A stretch of DNA of 41,420 bases from a virus. Taxonomy: Duplodnaviria; Heunggongvirae; Uroviricota; Caudoviricetes. Positions within the stretch are counted from its first letter, which is position 1, and each line of letters starts with the position of its first letter. Below the pieces are notes generated by a model. The model was not told the origin of the DNA and ran no database searches. It saw only the letters and a list, made by a program, of their open reading frames with translations. Positions 10,943 through 35,152 of this stretch are shown one piece after another. The stretch spans positions 1 through 41,420 of IMG/VR virus record IMGVR_UViG_2721755647_000003. The stretch is one strand, 5' to 3'. The position numbers were made by a program, and so were the translations under genes.

Positions 10943-11584
10943 ATGACTACTTTTACCGACAAAGAACTGATTAAAGAAATCAAAGAGCGCATAGGCAGCC
11001 TGGACGTTCGAGACAATATTGAGCGCCGGTCGTATGAAATTGCACTGGCATCGCTGGAACGCGAACAGATTCGCCACGAGCATGCCAAATGGTCTGACTC
11101 CACATTTGGCTGCGTTGGCCCCATTGGTCCACTGAAACACCTCTCAAAAGAGGCACTGGAAGCCGCAGCCGAACCAGACGATCTCAGCGAGTGGGCTGAT
11201 ATGCAGTTCCTGTTGTGGGATGCACAGCGCCGTGCTGGTATCAGTGATGCTGAAATTACCGCTGCTATGGAAAATAAATTGAAGATCAACATGGAACGCC
11301 AGTGGCCTGAACCAAAAGATGGTGAGCCTCGCTTGCACATTAAAGAACCCGGCAACTCTCCGGTAATTCCGGATGGTTGGATAAGCTGTAGTGATCGAAT
11401 GCCGGAAGACACCAAAATGTTACTGGCATTTAGTCAAGGTGAAATCGTGGCCGCATATTGGAACTGGGTTGTAAATCCAATTGATTACAAAAAATATAGA
11501 GCTTTCACGTATTTATCAGGAAATATCTTGGATGACGTAACTCACTGGATGCCGCTACCAGAACCGCCGCAGGAGGTGAAGTGA
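10943..11584 (+). CDS. MazG-like nucleotide pyrophosphohydrolase domain fused to a C-terminal DUF551 domain (213 aa)
   Basis: Central EHAKWSDSTFG...DAEITAAMENKL region MazG-like; C-terminal WISCSDRMPEDT...HWMPLPEPP DUF551-like. Confidence 0.55.
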   Translation: MTTFTDKELIKEIKERIGSLDVRDNIERRSYEIALASLEREQIRHEHAKWSDSTFGCVGPIGPLKHLSKEALEAAAEPDDLSEWADMQFLLWDAQRRAGISDAEITAAMENKLKINMERQWPEPKDGEPRLHIKEPGNSPVIPDGWISCSDRMPEDTKMLLAFSQGEIVAAYWNWVVNPIDYKKYRAFTYLSGNILDDVTHWMPLPEPPQEVK

Positions 11585-11706
11585 TGAACAAGTGCAACGC
11601 TCTGCTTTATGCCATGGTGATTGGTTTCGGCCTGGCTGCTGGTATCCGGGTTTATATTACCTGGGAGTCATTAATCAATCTGGCGTGGAGTGCGATTCGT
11701 GGCTAA
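11584..11706 (+). CDS. Possible small membrane peptide (40 aa), not in the ORF track
   Basis: ATG overlaps the upstream stop (TGATG); single hydrophobic helix LLYAMVIGFGLAAGIRVYI; hand-translated. Confidence 0.3.
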   Translation: MNKCNALLYAMVIGFGLAAGIRVYITWESLINLAWSAIRG

Positions 11707-12037
11707 ATCCCCCGCAGAACGCAAAGCCGCGCAGCGCGCTCGGCAGTCCGCCGCCGGTGAGCGCAAAATTGAACTGGTGCTGGATAAGCAGGAGCAGGAA
11801 ATGCTGGAGCGTAACTGTGCCACGCGTCGCCCCGGGCGTGCGCCTTACGAATTTGGGGAGTATATAGCGTTACTGATCCGCCAGGATGATGCACGCGTGC
11901 GCGGGCGTATAAAATCGATTAGCAGAAAACGTTGCGGTAAGTGCGGCGAGAAAGTTCCCGTTAATTCATGCCCGTGTAATGGTGACTCGCAATGCTGGGT
12001 GACTAAAGGCTGGCATGAAACTAAATTAATAGTGTGA
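11699..12037 (+). CDS. Cys-rich small protein in the Q (late regulator) position (about 112 aa; start uncertain, GTG 11699 or 11690)
   Basis: C-terminal CGKCGEKVPVNSCPCNGDSQCW zinc-finger-like cluster; last gene before a terminator and the terminase genes. Confidence 0.5.
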   Translation: MAKSPAERKAAQRARQSAAGERKIELVLDKQEQEMLERNCATRRPGRAPYEFGEYIALLIRQDDARVRGRIKSISRKRCGKCGEKVPVNSCPCNGDSQCWVTKGWHETKLIV

Positions 12038-12045
12038 CATGTCAC
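12034..12045. repeat. Perfect 12-bp palindrome GTGACATGTCAC (copy 1), contains the stop codon of the preceding gene
   Basis: Exact sequence read from window; TGA at 12035-12037 lies inside it. Confidence 0.9.
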
Positions 12046-12086
12046 GAGTAGATTATGCATGATGAATTTGATGGGTTTTGAATACT

Positions 12087-12112
12087 GCCGCCAACTATGG
12101 CGGCTTTATTTT
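12087..12112 (+). terminator. Intrinsic terminator between the Q-position gene and the terminase (tR'-like)
   Basis: GCCGCC-AACTAT-GGCGGC followed by TTTATTTT. Confidence 0.6.
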
Positions 12113-12155
12113 GCATGGTACTATTACCACAACGGTAACAATTACCAGGGTGGTT

Positions 12156-12788
12156 ATGATGCCTGCTGAACCTAAAACCTATAAACGCAAATCAACGCAA
12201 TTTAAGCCACTAACCGCAATGCAGGAGGCTTATTGCCAGTCATACATCAAAACGCCTGAAAACCAGACTCAGGCAGCGATTAACGCAGGATTCTCCCCAA
12301 ATACAGCGGCAGTTAAAGCCAGTGTCATGATGCGCGATGAACGCATTCAAAAACGGATTGCCGAGTTGATGGAGGAGCGCAACAAACGAATGCGCGTCAG
12401 TGCCGATTACGTTCTCATGCGCCTGGTGGAGATCGACCAGATGGACGTGCTGGATATACTGAACGATGACGGCGGGATGAAGCCGATCGCTGAATGGCCG
12501 AAGGTCTGGCGTACCTCTCTCAGTGCTATGGATATCGCTACCATCAAGACAACCCAGGCTTCCCTGCAAAAAGAGAATGGCGAGGCGGATCTCTCTGTTG
12601 AGGATGTCGAGCATATCCTGAAGAAGGTGAAATGGCCCGACAAGGTGAAAAACCTCGAGCTCATCGGTAAGCACGTCGACGTTAACGCGTTCAAAGAACG
12701 TCTGGATGTTAATGTGAATGTGACAATTGCTGATCGCATAGCAGCAGCCAGGAAGCGACTCAAAGAACGTCAGGATGGTAATCAGTGA
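12156..12788 (+). CDS. Terminase small subunit, P27-type (210 aa)
   Basis: Resembles P27-family small terminase subunits; ATG at 12156 after AGGGTGG; upstream part of the track ORF overlaps the terminator hairpin; coupled to the large subunit. Confidence 0.75.
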   Translation: MMPAEPKTYKRKSTQFKPLTAMQEAYCQSYIKTPENQTQAAINAGFSPNTAAVKASVMMRDERIQKRIAELMEERNKRMRVSADYVLMRLVEIDQMDVLDILNDDGGMKPIAEWPKVWRTSLSAMDIATIKTTQASLQKENGEADLSVEDVEHILKKVKWPDKVKNLELIGKHVDVNAFKERLDVNVNVTIADRIAAARKRLKERQDGNQ

Positions 12789-14310: not shown

Positions 14311-14330
14311 AGCCAGCTCATAGGCTGGCT
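14311..14330. terminator. Hairpin between convergent terminase and Gp49-like genes (acts as terminator at least on the minus strand)
   Basis: AGCCAGC-TCATAG-GCTGGCT; the minus strand continues into TTTGTTTTAT. Confidence 0.5.
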
Positions 14331-14334
14331 GTTT

Positions 14335-14346
14335 GTGACATGTCAC
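14335..14346. repeat. Perfect 12-bp palindrome GTGACATGTCAC (copy 2)
   Basis: Exact sequence; 4 nt after the stop of the minus-strand gene and directly before the hairpin. Confidence 0.9.
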
Positions 14347-14350
14347 GGTG

Positions 14351-14722
14351 TTATTGCTCGCTTAACTTCTGCTTCAGCAAGTAACCTTCAAGCATCCAGA
14401 TTTTGTTTACAGCATTCTGCCTGGCAATCTTCCGACCAATTTCTGCATCAAAGTTTTCCGGGCTTGCACATGCGCTCTCTCCGGTGACGGTGAAGCCGTT
14501 GCGCAGCACCAGGACGCAGAACGTCAGCAGAGAAAGTGATTCGTGCGGCTGGTAGTTTACCTCTCCGCCAGTATGTTTCGCTTTTATGGCTTTGCCAAAG
14601 GCACCATCTTCTGCTGTGAAATATGCCCCCTGAGCAATAATGCCTTCGATATGGTCTGGCGTAACGCGCGGTGCCGTTTTGCCTTTCTCAACGATTTCTT
14701 TTTCGATTTGCTTGTCGTTCAT
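14351..14722 (-). CDS. Gp49-like phage protein (N4 Gp49 / Sf6 gp66 family; 123 aa)
   Basis: Family call by resemblance only (not searched); AAGGTGAG RBS directly follows the T-run of an upstream terminator. Confidence 0.6.
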   Translation of the reverse strand: MNDKQIEKEIVEKGKTAPRVTPDHIEGIIAQGAYFTAEDGAFGKAIKAKHTGGEVNYQPHESLSLLTFCVLVLRNGFTVTGESACASPENFDAEIGRKIARQNAVNKIWMLEGYLLKQKLSEQ

Positions 14723-14921: not shown

Positions 14922-14998
14922 TGGCGTGGCATGCAGGATTCGAACCTGCGACCAACCGCTTAGAAGGCGGTTGCTCTGTCCGACTGAGCTAATGCCAC
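14922..14998 (-). tRNA. tRNA-Arg, anticodon UCU (77 nt, CCA encoded)
   Basis: Cloverleaf folded by hand: acceptor GTGGCAT/ATGCCAC, D-stem GCTC/GAGC, anticodon stem ACCGC/GCGGT with loop CTTCTAA, T-stem GCAGG/CCTGC, T-loop TTCGAAT, discriminator G, CCA. Confidence 0.85.
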
Positions 14999-15646: not shown

Positions 15647-17326
15647 ATGGCGGAAACAACTAAAGAGCGATTGAACAAACAGTTCGCACAACTTGAAAGC
15701 GAGCGTCAGTCGTTCGAGCCGCACTGGCGCGAGTTGAGTGATTACATCAACCCGCGTGGTTCCCGCTTTCTGACTTCTGAGGTCAACCGTAACGATCGAC
15801 GCAATACACGCATTATTGATTCGACCGGGACTATGGCGGCGCGCACTCTCGCCAGCGGCATGATGTCAGGCATCACAAGCCCTGCGCGTCCGTGGTTTCG
15901 CCTGGCTACGCCAGATCCTGAAATGATGGATTATGGTCCTGTTAAGTTGTGGCTCGAGGCGGTGCAGAACCGCATGAACGATATGTTCAATAAGTCGAAT
16001 CTCTACCAGTCTCTTCCGCAGTTATACGGAAGCCTCGGCACATACAGCACTGGTGCAATGGCGGTGCTGGAGGATGACGAGGACATCATTCGCACAATGC
16101 CATTCCCGATAGGCAGTTACTACCTGGCTAACTCACCTCGTGGCAGTGTGGACACCTGTTTTCGCAAGTTCTCTATGACTGTTCGTCAGCTTGTTCAGGA
16201 GTTCGGGCTAAATAACGTCAGCGAATCCGTAAAAAGCATGTGGGAAAGCGGCACCTACGAGAAGTGGATTGACGTGATGCATTCGGTTTACCCGAACATT
16301 GACCGCGATACATCGAAGCTGGATAGCAAGAACAAGCCATTCAAATCGGTTTATTACGAGGTTGGTGGCGATAACGACAAGTTGTTGCGTGAGTCCGGAT
16401 TTGATGAGTTTCCAATTATGGCTCCGCGCTGGGAAGTTAATGGCGAAGATGTTTATGGATCATCATGCCCGGGTATGCTGGCGCTTGGACCTGTTAAGGC
16501 ATTGCAGCTTCTCCAGAAGCGCAAGTCGCAGTTGATTGATAAAGCCACCAATCCGCCGATGGTTGCTCCGACTTCCCTCAAGAATCAGCGTGCCTCCCTT
16601 CTTCCTGGCGACATCACGTATATCGATCAGATTACTGGTCAGGATGGTTTCAGGCCTGCTTATCTGGTTAACCCCAGTACAGCAGATTTGGTGGCAGACA
16701 TTCAGGACACTCGTCAAATCATTAACAGCGCCTACTTTGTCGATCTGTTCATGATGTTGCAGAACATCAATACCCGCTCGATGCCTGTTGAAGCGGTGAT
16801 CGAAATGAAAGAAGAAAAACTTCTGATGTTGGGGCCGGTTCTGGAGCGTCTGAACGACGAATGTCTTAATCCTCTCATTGACCGCTCTTTCTCGATGATG
16901 GTGCGTAAAAACATGCTGCCGCCACCGCCAGACGTGATGGAAGGTATGCCCCTGAAGGTCGAATACATTTCCGTCATGGCTCAGGCGCAGAAGTCTATCG
17001 GCCTGTCCAGTCTGGCGTCCACGGTTAACTTCATTGGTCAACTTGCGCAAGCGAAACCAGAAGCTCTCGACAAACTCAACGTTGATCAGGCGATCGATGC
17101 ATTCGCTGATATGTCCGGAGTGTCTCCAACCGTCATTGTTCCGCAGGAACAGGTTGAGCAGGCTCGCCAGCAACGGGCACAGCAACAACAGCAGCAACAA
17201 ATGATGGCGATGGGGATGGCGGCGGCACAGGGTGCCAAGACGCTAAGCGAAGCTAAAACTTCGGATCCGAGTGTTTTGTCAGCTATGGCGAATGCAGTTA
17301 GTGGTCAGGGTGGGCAATCACAATGA
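15647..17326 (+). CDS. Portal protein, T7 gp8-like (559 aa)
   Basis: Gln/Met/Ala-rich C-terminal tail (QQQQQQMMAMGMAAAQG) and N-terminal region resemble podoviral gp8-type portals; follows the terminase genes. Confidence 0.8.
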   Translation: MAETTKERLNKQFAQLESERQSFEPHWRELSDYINPRGSRFLTSEVNRNDRRNTRIIDSTGTMAARTLASGMMSGITSPARPWFRLATPDPEMMDYGPVKLWLEAVQNRMNDMFNKSNLYQSLPQLYGSLGTYSTGAMAVLEDDEDIIRTMPFPIGSYYLANSPRGSVDTCFRKFSMTVRQLVQEFGLNNVSESVKSMWESGTYEKWIDVMHSVYPNIDRDTSKLDSKNKPFKSVYYEVGGDNDKLLRESGFDEFPIMAPRWEVNGEDVYGSSCPGMLALGPVKALQLLQKRKSQLIDKATNPPMVAPTSLKNQRASLLPGDITYIDQITGQDGFRPAYLVNPSTADLVADIQDTRQIINSAYFVDLFMMLQNINTRSMPVEAVIEMKEEKLLMLGPVLERLNDECLNPLIDRSFSMMVRKNMLPPPPDVMEGMPLKVEYISVMAQAQKSIGLSSLASTVNFIGQLAQAKPEALDKLNVDQAIDAFADMSGVSPTVIVPQEQVEQARQQRAQQQQQQQMMAMGMAAAQGAKTLSEAKTSDPSVLSAMANAVSGQGGQSQ

Positions 17327-17619
17327 CAGATTACGAAGACGATCAACTGAAAGAAGAAAACGCCCGTAAGCAACGTGACATGGCACAGCGTGAAATTGAT
17401 GACATTCGCTTTGTCATGAGCAGTGAACAGGGGCGTCGCGTTGTCTGGTCGGTGCTGGAGAAAGGCCGGGTGTTTTCCGCTATCTCTCCGATGGATGCTA
17501 TGGCAATGGCATTTAATGAGGGGCAACGCAATCTGGCGCTGGAACTGTTTCAGCGCGTTATGGCGCATTGCCCTGAACAGTATTTGAAGATGGCCAAAGA
17601 GGCCAGTGAACAGGAGTGA
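17323..17619 (+). CDS. Hypothetical protein (98 aa)
   Basis: ATG overlaps the portal stop (ATGA). Confidence 0.6.
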   Translation: MTDYEDDQLKEENARKQRDMAQREIDDIRFVMSSEQGRRVVWSVLEKGRVFSAISPMDAMAMAFNEGQRNLALELFQRVMAHCPEQYLKMAKEASEQE

Positions 17620-31483: not shown

Positions 31484-32044
31484 ATGAAGGCAATTATATT
31501 TTTTGTTTCAATATTGATGTCTGCATTTTCTTTTGCAGGGCAAAATGTTAAATGCGAACTTCAATACTTTGGAGATAGCGATAAATTTAAGGTAACTCAG
31601 TTTTCTTTTATGGGGATTCCATCTGATTCATACCTTTATACCTGTGCCGACTGTGGAGGCATCCAGATAAACGTGTTCCCATCTATTCAGACTGTTGCTT
31701 CCTACTCATTTGAAAACAACATTGATTTCGAAAGGAAAATCAATGCTGAATACAACAGAAAAGACATAGCTAAACTTGAGATGGAAAACGTTACTCAAGG
31801 CGGGAGAATAAAATATTCAATCACCGATACTGGTTTGGCAGAGTTTTACCCAGAGGGCAAAAAGATAAGCTACCTCTACTTTTTAGCCAAGCAACAAAAT
31901 GGTAAAGAACAAGTAGGTTATTCAGGATTTGTTACCTCTAACGGGGATAAGTCATGCTCAATTATTGCGACATATCCAGGAAAAGAAATTTCTTTTCTGG
32001 GAAGTAAATCTCTAAGCTACTTTATGAATCATATATCAATGTAG
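31484..32044 (+). CDS. AT-rich secreted protein of unknown function (186 aa), signal peptide predicted by eye
   Basis: N-terminal MKAIIFFVSILMSAFSFAGQ hydrophobic signal; Cys-containing mature part; marked AT-richness relative to neighbours. Confidence 0.6.
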   Translation: MKAIIFFVSILMSAFSFAGQNVKCELQYFGDSDKFKVTQFSFMGIPSDSYLYTCADCGGIQINVFPSIQTVASYSFENNIDFERKINAEYNRKDIAKLEMENVTQGGRIKYSITDTGLAEFYPEGKKISYLYFLAKQQNGKEQVGYSGFVTSNGDKSCSIIATYPGKEISFLGSKSLSYFMNHISM

Positions 32045-32045
32045 C

Positions 32046-32057
32046 GTGACATGTCAC
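32046..32057. repeat. Perfect 12-bp palindrome GTGACATGTCAC (copy 3)
   Basis: Exact sequence; 1 nt after the TAG stop, directly followed by a terminator hairpin. Confidence 0.9.
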
Positions 32058-32083
32058 AGGCCGCTTTCGCGGCCTTGTTTTTT
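32058..32083 (+). terminator. Intrinsic terminator after the secreted-protein gene
   Basis: AGGCCGC-TTTC-GCGGCCT followed by TGTTTTTT. Confidence 0.65.
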
Positions 32084-32160
32084 AACGAATGCCGCCTCCG
32101 CCCGGGCGGGAATCCGCAGAACGCCCACCGCAGCGGGAGCCGTCAGCGGCAGTATCGTTG

Positions 32161-32673
32161 TTATACTATTGAATTAAATGATATCTTGTCCTTAATATCA
32201 TTAAGTTTGCCATATATCTTTTTTGCATAAGAATCAGCTTCCTCAATAAACTTCGACTTCTCATTATCAGGCATATTTTTGAAGGTATGTGCACATGTAT
32301 ATTGAGAGTAGTAATTGTGAAACTTGTTATACAAATTATTGAGTTCTTGTAAGTCTTTTTTATACTCAGGAAGGTATATGTTTATTAGCATTTCCATCGT
32401 TTGCAACGGATTGACTTTTGATGTGTCAAATTTACTACCAGAGTGGTAACTGGCATTGTTAACAAAATTGAGAATAGCCACTTCGCTTGAAGCTATGACT
32501 TTTTCAGTAAGTATGCAATTTGTGAATAATTGCTCACGTTTATCTCTTAATATTTTTTCGCGCTCTAATTTTATGCTGTTTTTGTATCCTTGCCTTGCAC
32601 TTATGTAAGTAGAAACTATAGCAATAACTGCACCTATCAATGCGCCTAAGATAGTATTATCCATATAAGCCAC
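32161..32673 (-). CDS. AT-rich membrane-anchored protein of unknown function (170 aa; one N-terminal TM helix, then coiled-coil-like domain)
   Basis: Hydrophobic TILGALIGAVIAIVSTYI segment; Lys/Asn/Tyr-rich remainder; third gene of a minus-strand operon. Confidence 0.6.
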   Translation of the reverse strand: MAYMDNTILGALIGAVIAIVSTYISARQGYKNSIKLEREKILRDKREQLFTNCILTEKVIASSEVAILNFVNNASYHSGSKFDTSKVNPLQTMEMLINIYLPEYKKDLQELNNLYNKFHNYYSQYTCAHTFKNMPDNEKSKFIEEADSYAKKIYGKLNDIKDKISFNSIV

Positions 32674-32689
32674 CTAAACTGCGTAAAAA

Positions 32690-33553
32690 TTATTTCCTGC
32701 CACTTCTGTAGTATATGTTGCGACCATTTTTGGTCACATTAACAACATGCCCCTTTGTTTCTACTTTGTTATTTGTTGCCTTATATACTTCAAAGTCAAA
32801 CCATGATATATGACTTATTTCGTCTATAGATACCATAATTTCTAGACCTTGAACTTTCTTTTTGCTTATCCCTTTTATCGCAGCACTGCGCTTAATTTGG
32901 ATTTCACCTGGGTAAGCGTTTGTAAATGTAACAGATAAATTTTCTTTGTTTCTGTACCCTGACATTAAAGGAACAAAAGATATGTGTTGGTGTGGCCCTT
33001 GATTTTCCGTTAGCTCACCAGAACCATTTATTATTCCAACGTATACTTTATTTGATGATAAAGTAATTAACATTGGTTTCTTAGGATCTGATTCGATTGC
33101 ATCAAGCAATAGCAAATCTAAAGAACCCTGGGAGTACGTTTTTCGCAATACTCTAGCTTTCATTGCCTCTGATATTTTGTCATAAATATCACGTTTATAA
33201 AAACAACCTAAAAGAAGATCTTTTAGCCAAACAAAAGATACATAACACAAAGAGAAGCAAATTGATGTGGCTGAGAGAAGAAGCAGCCACATGTAAATTC
33301 TATCTGTTTCTGGTTTTGATGTTACATTAAAAGTTTCCACCATATCGTGAACTAGGTGAAAATCAGGCCATTTATATTTTATAGCGGCTGCAATTATTAC
33401 TGATGCAACAAGGCAATATGTACCTAGTGCCGCTACCTTCATATAAAGAAGCTGGCCTTCGTGTCGGTATAAACGGAAATAATGATACTGGTTAGCGGTT
33501 ATCATAATATAACCGCTAACCAGGATTGGGATAATTAGAAGAGCTAGCAACAC
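32690..33553 (-). CDS. AT-rich integral membrane protein of unknown function (287 aa; about 3 TM helices plus C-terminal soluble domain)
   Basis: Three hydrophobic segments in the first 110 residues; GTG start overlapping the upstream stop (TAGTG). Confidence 0.6.
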   Translation of the reverse strand: MLLALLIIPILVSGYIMITANQYHYFRLYRHEGQLLYMKVAALGTYCLVASVIIAAAIKYKWPDFHLVHDMVETFNVTSKPETDRIYMWLLLLSATSICFSLCYVSFVWLKDLLLGCFYKRDIYDKISEAMKARVLRKTYSQGSLDLLLLDAIESDPKKPMLITLSSNKVYVGIINGSGELTENQGPHQHISFVPLMSGYRNKENLSVTFTNAYPGEIQIKRSAAIKGISKKKVQGLEIMVSIDEISHISWFDFEVYKATNNKVETKGHVVNVTKNGRNIYYRSGRK

Positions 33554-33762
33554 TACTTCCTTACAGTGGCAAGATCCTGTTTAACAATTGCAGCAGCGAG
33601 ACGACGCATCTCCTTAACCTCAGGAAGCTCAGAAATTTGCTGTGATGAGATATATACTCCACCACGCTTGTTAACCTGCGCTGACGCCGGAACTTCTGCA
33701 TTTTTTGCCTGAGGGCTGGGTGCATTATCCCTCGTTTTTGTACGAGCGAACCAAAATCCCAT
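33553..33762 (-). CDS. Small basic protein (69 aa), first gene of the AT-rich operon; possible DNA-binding or regulatory protein
   Basis: ATG at 33762 with strong GAGGAGG RBS; operator palindrome 27 bp upstream. Confidence 0.6.
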   Translation of the reverse strand: MGFWFARTKTRDNAPSPQAKNAEVPASAQVNKRGGVYISSQQISELPEVKEMRRLAAAIVKQDLATVRK

Positions 33763-33788
33763 ATCTCCTCCTCATGTAAACACATGGT

Positions 33789-33803
33789 TTACCTTTAAGG
33801 TAA
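33789..33803. promoter_or_regulatory. Perfect palindrome TTACC-TTTAA-GGTAA upstream of the AT-rich operon
   Basis: Exact sequence; a TAATAT -10-like hexamer lies immediately upstream on the minus strand. Confidence 0.55.
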
Positions 33804-33868
33804 TATTACGCGAATCTACATCACATCGCCAATGATTATTTTAAAGGCACATCCCTGTGCCGCCGCCG

Positions 33869-34579
33869 TCAGAAGAACCCTGCCTTGTCGTTGATGTACT
33901 CCGCGTGGGTCTGGATATCACGCAGGCATTTACTCACACCGACGATGTAGCAGAACATGGTGGTCAGCTCCGCCGCCGCGCCCGATACATCGTGCCCGTC
34001 TTCCTGTAACTGGTTTAGCAGATTCATCAGCAGTGAGTTCTCCGTCAGGCCGAGAACACCAGACGGCGAATGAATCAGGCTACGGTAGCCGGGCTTCAGT
34101 GGGGCACTGTAGGTTTTGTTCTCTATCTTCATCGCCTGCATTACTGCTGACGCCGTGGCGTTGGCTACCTGGTCGGCAACCATCTTTATGCGTTCTTCCT
34201 GCGGGAGCGAGTTTTTAATGTAGCTTCCGGTGCGGCGGATCTGAGGAAGAACCTCACCTGTAACCCATTTACGAAAGCGGTAGGGGATAGTGCCTGGTGT
34301 CACCGCATCGCGGCAGCGGAGGATCAGTGTGTAGAGGCCTGACTCGGAGATGATGTTGATCTCTTTTACTCGGCTGTCAAAAATTGCACGATGTTCATGC
34401 CCTATGTTGAACATAGACCTTTCATCATCATCCAGTTTTTCAAGTGCTTGGGTGACGTTTTGGATACGCAGCGCACTACAAACGTCTTGGGCTACAAACC
34501 ATGGTTGGCCATCGATAATGATGGAACGGATAGGGTTAACAGATTCAAATTTGAAGATGGCAGTTTGAGCATTAGCCAT
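33869..34579 (-). CDS. Bro-N domain antirepressor-like protein (236 aa)
   Basis: N-terminal FKFESVNPIRSIIIDGQPWFVAQDVCSALRIQN...ESGLYTLILRC Bro-N pattern; ATG at 34579 with GGAGAT RBS. Confidence 0.75.
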   Translation of the reverse strand: MANAQTAIFKFESVNPIRSIIIDGQPWFVAQDVCSALRIQNVTQALEKLDDDERSMFNIGHEHRAIFDSRVKEINIISESGLYTLILRCRDAVTPGTIPYRFRKWVTGEVLPQIRRTGSYIKNSLPQEERIKMVADQVANATASAVMQAMKIENKTYSAPLKPGYRSLIHSPSGVLGLTENSLLMNLLNQLQEDGHDVSGAAAELTTMFCYIVGVSKCLRDIQTHAEYINDKAGFF

Positions 34580-34733
34580 GGTGGTTATCTCCACTTAGTG
34601 ATTTTAATCACCACCGCAACGCCAATTACTGGTGGTGAACTGGACAAGGTTGGCGTACCGGCCTAAGTGGTACCGGCGTCCTTTCGGACCCCTGCCCAGC
34701 CCACCATAATTCGGATATAGCTGTGCTTAACGC

Positions 34734-34758
34734 ATAAAAAAACCACGTCTGGCGTGGT
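34734..34758 (-). terminator. Intrinsic terminator between the two Bro-related genes
   Basis: Minus strand reads ACCACG-CCAGA-CGTGGT followed by TTTTTTTAT. Confidence 0.5.
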
Positions 34759-34848
34759 ATGCGCCACTTAGTAACTCGGGACGCCAATCCCGGCACTGGA
34801 TTTTGCCAGTACCCGATTACTATGGCACAAGAGGAGTGCGATGTAAAT

Positions 34849-34863
34849 TTACCGCAAAGGTAA
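34849..34863. promoter_or_regulatory. Perfect palindrome TTACC-GCAAA-GGTAA
   Basis: Exact sequence, in the intergenic region between the two Bro-related genes. Confidence 0.5.
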
Positions 34864-34894
34864 ATATAAGCACTCCACTTGGTAATTGCAAACC

Positions 34895-35152
34895 TTATCT
34901 GGTTTGTTTTCGTAATTGTTCGGCACAATAGTCGAGATGTGTTTGCAGATCCCGCATAGACATCTGTGAGCTGGTGACGTAGTTAATCAGTGCAGTCAGT
35001 TCGGCAAGTGGGCCATCGACATTAAATCCATCCTTATCGAGATCCCGGAGTAATTTCATCAAGTGCGATCCCTCCACCAGTGACCTGACGCCTCCCGGCG
35101 TGTGAATCCTTTCGGTAAATCCGTCTTCCAGTGGATAGTGATACTGCTGCAT
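34895..35152 (-). CDS. Small protein (85 aa) homologous to the C-terminal domain of the adjacent Bro-N protein
   Basis: Aligns by eye to the Bro-N protein C-terminus (TPGGVRSLVEGSHLMKLLRDL...MRDLQTHLDYC versus SPSGVLGLTENSLLMNLLNQL...LRDIQTHAEYI); ATG at 35152 with GGAG RBS. Confidence 0.6.
   Translation of the reverse strand: MQQYHYPLEDGFTERIHTPGGVRSLVEGSHLMKLLRDLDKDGFNVDGPLAELTALINYVTSSQMSMRDLQTHLDYCAEQLRKQTR

Follow-up and report, generated by a model that had tools for sequence, protein, structure and literature searches.

The window analysed here, a whole stretch of viral DNA of 41,420 nucleotides, belongs to a temperate podophage resembling epsilon15, phiV10, and TL-2011b. At the end of its early-right operon, just ahead of the terminase genes, lies a gene for a protein of 112 amino acids. 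An earlier note on this DNA had singled the gene out as the last early gene before the terminase operon, encoding a small protein with a cysteine cluster and ending in a stop codon embedded within a 12-bp palindrome some 40 bp before a strong terminator. Each of these observations was borne out, and the features concerned are as follows:

11699..12037, plus strand: gene for the 112-aa protein, predicted to combine a ribbon-helix-helix (RHH) fold with a zinc knuckle (the RHH-Zn gene), running from GTG 11699 to TGA 12035-12037
12034..12045, no strand: palindrome copy 1, GTGACATGTCAC, in which TGA 12035-12037 occupies positions 2-4; predicted protein binding site
12055..12081, plus strand: ORF remnant of eight codons, MHDEFDGF and a stop, recognised by comparison with the 72-aa cargo ORF of relatives
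12087..12112, plus strand: terminator of the early-right operon, with a 7-bp GC stem (12087-12093/12098-12104), a 4-nt loop, and the tail TTTATTTT
12124..12156, no strand: two TTACC-N5-GGTAA operators (12124-12138 exact, 12142-12156 with one mismatch) between the terminator and the start of TerS

The mechanical list of ORFs places the start of the RHH-Zn gene at GTG 11690; GTG 11699 is preferred because it overlaps the stop codon of the 41-aa ORF upstream and agrees with the length of the 112-aa homologues. The upstream ORF (11581-11706) is hydrophobic, matches phrog_5525 (E 8e-30), and shares 8 nt with the beginning of the RHH-Zn gene. In epsilon15, gp49 overlaps gp48 in the same manner, although gp48 is a different gene of 90 aa.

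On the downstream side, 41 nt separate palindrome copy 1 (12034-12045) from the terminator at 12087-12112, which folds at -13.8 kcal/mol (z -4.95) and whose homologous feature carries a terminator annotation in the epsilon15 record. TerS (Terminase_2, E 6e-28; start ATG 12156 or 12159) and then TerL follow the terminator. The lysis genes, identified by homology to the holin, endolysin, and Rz of epsilon15, are found only at about 38.3-40.1 kb, some 26 kb further on.

Judging from the comparison with relatives, the spacer between copy 1 and the terminator is a deletion scar and not a designed leader, since the eight codons at 12055-12081 are what is left of an ORF that other phages retain. About a third of relatives have this 72-aa ORF (MPKIRYDLEDMRDN...YDEFDGL) intact between palindrome and terminator. 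It has no match in Pfam, and one close relative carries yet another ORF between copy 1 and the terminator.

The 112-aa protein and its predicted fold

By sequence similarity, the 112-aa protein is a member of the uncharacterised epsilon15 gp49 / N15 gp46 family (phrog_536; E 5.4e-54 over residues 1-111). Epsilon15 gp49 is 81% identical to it and occupies the same position before the terminator and TerS, in a genome that shares the three palindromes described below; no difference between the two proteins is known, gp49 and gp46 both being uncharacterised. The gp49 record notes a similarity to N15 gp46. All database names of family members are 'hypothetical', with the term 'transcriptional regulator' on gp49 and gp46 being an automatic label. 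Literature searches found no study of gp49 or gp46, and the paper on vB_EcoP_ZX5 covers the repressor, antirepressor, and integrase only. Searched alone, the 112-aa protein matched no Pfam family at E<=1 and no NCBIfam family, and a PDB sequence search came back empty.

A total of 184 relatives were recovered from 1.84 billion cluster representatives, and conservation within the family was scored on 56 diverse full-length members. Across these 56, the N-terminal stretch is basic (ERKxAQRxRxK) and is succeeded by a short strand, by two conserved helices with an 'EPYxxxEYIxxLIR' motif, and by a C-terminal cluster of the form C-x2-C-G-x2-[LV]-P...C...G-D-x2-C-W. Both C79 and C82 are invariant in this set and C99 is at least 90% conserved, while among close relatives C79, C82, C91, C93, and C99 are all invariant, as is C40. 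In the 112-aa protein itself, the cysteines are spaced CxxC-x8-C-x-C-x5-C.

A confident model of the protein needed the 56 diverse members; AF2 supplied with 20 close homologues gave an all-helical structure of pLDDT 56, which was useless. The model obtained from the diverse set (pLDDT 92) comprises a basic N-terminal helix (residues 5-19), a ribbon-helix-helix core (about 20-74), and a C-terminal zinc knuckle with C79, C82, C91/C93, and C99 as its putative ligands. The strand-helix-helix fold of the RHH (Arc/MetJ/CopG) superfamily is present in this model. Matches to RHH families in Pfam are marginal and were found for 5 of the 56 members (RHH_5 at E 0.013, RepB-RCR_reg at 0.028, RHH_1 at 0.071), and a Foldseek comparison of the model with the PDB gave no useful lead, its best hit being TTHA0139 at E about 1. 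On the basis of the model, the 112-aa protein can be regarded with high confidence as a ribbon-helix-helix DNA binder.

The likeness to RHH regulators such as Arc, Mnt, CopG, MetJ, and the RHH antitoxins extends over the strand-helix-helix order, the basic N-terminal arm, and the presence of a short candidate palindrome. The protein differs from these regulators, however, in the predicted zinc knuckle added at its C-terminus and in the placement of the candidate site, which lies over the stop codon at the 3' end of the gene and not over a promoter. As far as could be found, neither the predicted RHH plus zinc-knuckle architecture of the gp49 family nor its assignment to this fold has been described before.

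Residues 47-108 weakly resemble TraR/YbiI (PDB profile E 0.03; hhalign 72%), and TraR/DksA share with this part of the protein a helix followed by C-x2-C-G-x2-[ILV]-P...G...C. The C4 finger of DksA/TraR (PF01258) has the form CxxC-x17-CxxC, however, as opposed to CxxC-x8-C-x-C-x5-C here, and no PF01258 match is listed. Since the cysteine spacing differs, this weak resemblance in sequence is taken as a lead only.

Several other assignments were considered and rejected. Readings as an HNH nuclease, an antitoxin, or a partition protein were dropped, the protein having no catalytic residues, the gene no conserved partner, and the prophages being integrated ones. The late activators P2 Ogr and P4 Delta (PF04606) gave no Pfam match to the 112-aa protein and do not occur among the Pfam matches listed for the 56 members.

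A palindrome linked to the gene

The window contains three exact copies of the palindrome (at 12034, 14335, and 32046) and one with a single mismatch, against 0.17 expected, and none of 100 shuffles of the window reached four copies. The copy with a mismatch, GTGACATGGCAC, lies at 17375-17386, inside the coding region 17323-17619. Among the close relatives that reach 12034-12045, 76 of 79 have the exact palindrome on the stop codon, and the sequence 3' of it is not conserved.

Beyond the close relatives, 15 more distant lineages (33-81% identity) were sampled one by one. An exact GTGAC-NN-GTCAC on or beside the stop codon is found in 10 of the 16 sampled lineages, with protein identities of 35-97%; by our own estimate, the chance of such a match at a stop codon is about 1e-4 per lineage. 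The TGA stop codon forms positions 2-4 of the palindrome in epsilon15, in three N15-like phages (L089, L099, and L103), in a P2-like Yersinia phage (L100), in two prophage or phage contigs of unclear type (L082 and L086), and in a short contig (L095). In L087, the palindrome immediately follows a TAG stop codon, and in an eleventh lineage, the Mu-like L093, it occupies the corresponding position, which there falls within a C-terminal extension of the protein. The palindrome is degenerate in two of the sampled lineages and absent at the stop codon in four.

The epsilon15-, N15-, Mu-, and P2-like carriers share no neighbouring gene except the RHH-Zn gene itself; in the P2-like L100, for instance, the gene and its palindrome come directly after gpA. 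Because the pair persists across four phage groups whose neighbouring genes differ, the palindrome is assigned, on this comparative evidence, to the gene and not to the terminator or the late operon.

The composition of the site is also informative. The centre varies across copies (AT, CG, CT, TG, AG, and GC), the base 5' of the palindrome is always Y and the base 3' always R in every copy found, and the sequence around the copies is essentially random. The arms are identical in all copies found, an identity that is partly built in, as copies were located by the arm pattern; the weight lies instead on an exact match at 10 specified bases, so close to the stop codon, recurring in so many lineages. 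Invariant arms around a variable centre have the look of a site for a symmetric dimer.

No sigma-70 promoter is conserved at or after copy 1 in this window, in epsilon15, or in relatives, and the palindrome is thus not a classical operator over a promoter. The one candidate, with GTGACA as a -35 element, scores 9/12 with an 18-nt spacer here and 9/12 in epsilon15; it was rejected, being lost in those relatives that carry an ORF after the palindrome. A short symmetric site that is kept beside the gene for a DNA-binding fold of symmetric dimers is most plausibly read as that protein's own site. Judged from co-inheritance and fold alone, Y-GTGAC-NN-GTCAC-R is quite probably the binding site of the 112-aa protein. 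It counts against this assignment that the putative DNA-reading strand varies among members sharing identical palindrome arms (xELxL, RRDWxL, and EIRARL), so that the conserved basic N-terminal helix would need to do most of the recognition; no clean rule of covariation relates this strand to the presence or the centre of the palindrome.

The gp49 family is already known, as are the terminator and the repressor sites annotated in epsilon15. The palindromes, by comparison, bear no annotation in the epsilon15 record, and literature searches found nothing on them. As far as could be found, linkage of this gene to a stop-codon palindrome that recurs at operon ends has no earlier description.

Three copies of the palindrome are also present in the 16-kb N15-like locus L089. 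The N15-like L089 and L090 have extra palindromes inside mazE and inside a 1338-aa replication gene (positions 73 and 4647 of L089). At the homologous place in the 1334-aa replication gene of L083 (1060-1103), a palindrome copy, GTGACTGGTCAC, lies 12 nt from the inverted repeat GGGACCACGGTCCC, which looks like a SopB-type centromere site.

Operon ends, cargo slots, and repressor operators

The second and third exact copies of the palindrome lie among the following features:

14311..14330, minus strand: terminator hairpin after TerL, with a T-run on the minus strand only
14335..14346, no strand: palindrome copy 2, 4 nt past the stop codon of a minus-strand cargo ORF and 4 nt before the hairpin
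14351..14722, minus strand: variable cargo ORF of the Phage_gp49_66 family, with at least 7 alleles swapped ORF-for-ORF among relatives
32046..32057, no strand: palindrome copy 3, 1 nt past TAG 32042-32044, the stop codon of the final plus-strand ORF in the head-tail operon
32058..32083, plus strand: intrinsic terminator after copy 3, a hairpin with a T-run beginning about 1 nt past the palindrome

All three exact copies have the same setting: each marks the end of a transcription unit, where it comes between stop codon and intrinsic terminator and adjoins a variable cargo slot. Homology between relatives breaks at all three. Copy 2 marks the exact left edge of a hypervariable slot (14351-14722), the boundaries of which are 14335-14346 and about 14712-14718; each of at least 7 unrelated cargo ORFs has its stop codon exactly 4 nt from this copy. 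Among 75 relatives, 48 carry copy 2 in exact form and a further 6 carry it with one mismatch; in about a quarter it is missing or replaced. In the relative L017, the slot is reduced to an eight-codon remnant, MKYEFDGF and a stop.

The hairpin at 14311..14330 is effective mainly for the minus-strand cargo gene, since its T-run on the plus strand is poor. On the other side of the slot, a tRNA-Arg(tct) gene (14922-14998, minus strand) is followed by an intrinsic terminator on the same strand (14758-14743) and then, immediately, by the start signals of the cargo ORF, its ribosome-binding site and its ATG. The terminator leaves no space after it in which a promoter could lie, and expression of the cargo ORF at 14351-14722 therefore seems to depend on read-through.

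At copy 3, the hairpin of the palindrome and the adjoining terminator (32040-32086) fold together at -16.5 kcal/mol (z -2.96). The three palindrome copies are all present in epsilon15 as well, where the stop codon of gp18 lies inside the equivalent of copy 3; the ORF upstream of copy 3 and about 2.8 kb of minus-strand genes downstream of it differ between the two phages. The downstream part is an insert relative to epsilon15 (32161-34900, minus strand, about 2.8 kb), situated between the terminator after copy 3 and the gp19 homologue and carrying ORFs of 170, 287, 74, and 241 aa, the 170-aa ORF having no match in Pfam. It is probably a conversion or cargo module.

A second palindrome, TTACC-N5-GGTAA, is present in the window in 10 exact copies and 6 with one mismatch, against 0.6 expected. 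Its positions include 5496, 5558, 6270, 6318, 6655, 8595, 8657, and 12124, with further sites at 12142, 15321, 33789, 34849, 35229, 38458, and others; the sites fall in the cI/cro region and also directly upstream of TerS, of the head operon, and of the tailspike gene. The epsilon15 RefSeq record annotates homologous sites, including those at TerS, as 'repressor' binding sites. From the distribution of these sites, the immunity repressor seems to act genome-wide, late operons included, and late operons under such direct immunity control would have a weaker need for a switch of the Q type.

Roles considered for the protein and its site

By analogy with known systems, the role preferred here, albeit tentatively, is that of a boundary or insulator factor that acts as a roadblock at the palindromes and regulates its own synthesis, and not that of a late-gene switch. 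The protein would accumulate late in early-right transcription, whereupon a dimer would occupy each palindrome and halt elongating RNA polymerase arriving from either side. Within the RHH-Zn gene, the halt would come before the stop codon is transcribed, which would both cut off read-through downstream and yield messages without a stop codon; by way of these messages, the protein would cap its own level, an arrangement known from the Lac repressor at O3. Bound at copies 2 and 3, the protein would help the operon ends to prevent transcription from running on into convergent or cargo genes.

The precedent is LacI at O3, an operator at the 3' end of the repressor's own gene, where a roadblock limits the synthesis of the repressor (PMC3711431). 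The fold of LacI is a different one, however, and the roadblock proposed here is suggested only by the conserved register between site and stop codon. Such a block at the gene's own stop codon would account for a site that is kept in stop-codon register even where no terminator follows, and the position of all three copies at the ends of transcription units, between stop codon and terminator, is consistent with it. Mycobacteriophage L5 possesses 'stoperators', which are dispersed short intergenic sites at gene ends thought to stop elongation. L5 has about 30 of these sites, which are asymmetric and have the immunity repressor as their ligand, whereas the sites here are three, are symmetric, and have an early lytic protein as their predicted ligand.

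Several observations count against a roadblock. The site is missing from the stop codon in the four sampled lineages mentioned above, and about a quarter of close relatives lack copy 2 or have other sequence in its place. The roadblock formed by one RHH dimer on 12-14 bp may be weak, and the added block looks redundant, since strong terminators are already present at all three places.

The earlier note had likened the locus to the Q / qut / tR' arrangement of lambdoid phages, and the likeness is one of layout: a last early gene, a terminator, and late genes in the same orientation. A Q-like role for the 112-aa protein is nonetheless not supported. Lambda Q has another fold and no sequence relation to the protein, and the locus is without a conserved promoter or pause element. 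The profile and structure searches that had been proposed did place the protein, in phrog_536 and in a predicted RHH-Zn fold, but not in any Q family: none of the Q models (PF03589, PF06530, and PF06323) matched the 112-aa protein or appeared among the Pfam matches listed for the 56 members, and the predicted model does not have the fold of Q. Nor was the layout of qut, with the site inside a late promoter, a pause, and a terminator at a fixed short distance, found here or in relatives. The distance from palindrome to terminator is 22 nt in epsilon15, 41 nt here, and about 230 nt in a third of relatives, and in N15-like members there is no terminator after the palindrome, the ribosome-binding site of the next gene following directly. 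Pairs of gene and palindrome in N15-, Mu-, and P2-like phages often have no terminator or late operon downstream. Furthermore, the N15-like phages carry a true Q (PF06323, next to cro) besides the RHH-Zn gene and its palindrome, the N15-like immB layout being taken from PMC4488713, and Mor occurs alongside the RHH-Zn gene in one of two sampled Mu-like members (L096). What stands of the suggestion that the protein may be a distinct late regulator is that a regulator is reasonable, given a DNA-binding fold and a very probable site; a Q-type late switch is not supported.

A functional analogue of Q, unrelated in descent, has also to be weighed, in which the protein would bind the palindrome, as DNA or as nascent RNA, and enable RNA polymerase to pass the 12087 terminator and enter the terminase and head genes, or would activate a weak late promoter nearby. 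It would suit a last early gene that lies just upstream of a strong terminator and late genes, in a group that yielded no Q homologue (none of the genes in the TL-2011b and epsilon15 records is annotated as Q), and there is no convincing sigma-70 promoter between the 12087 terminator and TerS. The arginine-rich N-terminus and the weak resemblance of residues 47-108 to TraR, which binds RNA polymerase, point the same way. This analogue is nevertheless unlikely in view of the missing Q fold and Pfam match, the inconstant or absent terminator, and the coexistence of the family with true Q and Mor already described. In addition, the terminators that follow copies 2 and 3 ought to function, and antitermination at these copies would be harmful because the operon ends there face convergent genes; the late operons, moreover, possess repressor operators of their own.

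The break of homology exactly at the palindrome, in all three copies, raises the question of whether the palindrome is a recombination junction, that is, a short conserved linker for the exchange of cargo, with the job of the neighbouring protein unrelated to it. The at least 7 cargo ORFs ending 4 nt from copy 2, the different ORFs or the deletion that follow copy 1, and the upstream ORF and downstream cargo at copy 3 that are unlike those of epsilon15 would all fit a junction. A passive linker would not, however, stay identical across four phage groups while the protein diverges to 35% identity, and no recombinase is associated with the palindrome. Cargo gathers at operon ends anyway, so that its adjacency to the palindrome may be a by-product, and a junction of this kind is considered quite improbable.

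There is less likelihood still that the protein is a DNA-loaded modifier of RNA polymerase, in which an RHH dimer parked on the palindrome would engage the arriving polymerase through its TraR-like helix and zinc module and alter its behaviour at downstream terminators, thereby effecting the handover from early to late transcription in the Q-less epsilon15-like phages.

Cross-talk with the host, whereby a host protein would read the palindrome or the phage protein would target host sites, was considered with regard to MatP and matS and is very unlikely. The phages of the family have hosts among the Enterobacterales, Vibrio, and Aeromonas, bacteria in which MatP is known. The GTGAC/GTCAC arms of the palindrome recur unchanged in matS, the E. 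coli site to which MatP, itself an RHH protein, binds; matS has 13 bp, a 3-bp centre, and the consensus GTGACRNYGTCAC (PMC6907758). The phage site is of 12 bp, though, with a spacing of 2 bp in every copy and never the 3 bp of matS. RHH folds are common to both proteins, but there is no detectable sequence relation between them: an hhalign comparison of the family with MatP gave a probability of 0.3%, and the model is without the four-helix bundle and coiled coil of MatP. The resemblance to matS was, furthermore, noticed after the fact.

The weakest of the alternatives, a role in RNA as a short 3'-UTR hairpin by which messages beside terminators would be stabilised or processed, finds some encouragement in copies 2 and 3 abutting a terminator hairpin on the transcribed strand and in a symmetry that reaches 8-bp arms in two lineages with different flanking bases, but is highly improbable in that the RNA hairpin of the palindrome is negligible (-2.9 kcal/mol, z -0.18, no better than shuffles), its 5-bp arms are identical and not covarying across lineages, its 2-nt loop is sterically poor, and no Rfam family matched at the three palindrome sites covered.

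No description of late-gene control was found for the epsilon15-like phages (Uetakevirus), a group that includes serotype-converting and reporter phages of Salmonella and E. coli O157. For these phages, the present analysis removes the 'Q-like' label from gp49 and replaces it with a testable pair, a predicted RHH and zinc protein and its candidate 14-bp site, which have stayed associated in phages resembling epsilon15, N15, Mu, and P2. That the arms of the site are also those of matS raises the question of cross-talk with the Ter-organising system of the host. Should the protein prove to be a self-limiting roadblock and boundary factor, it would constitute a second natural example of the LacI-O3 principle and would offer synthetic biology a compact, portable insulator part.
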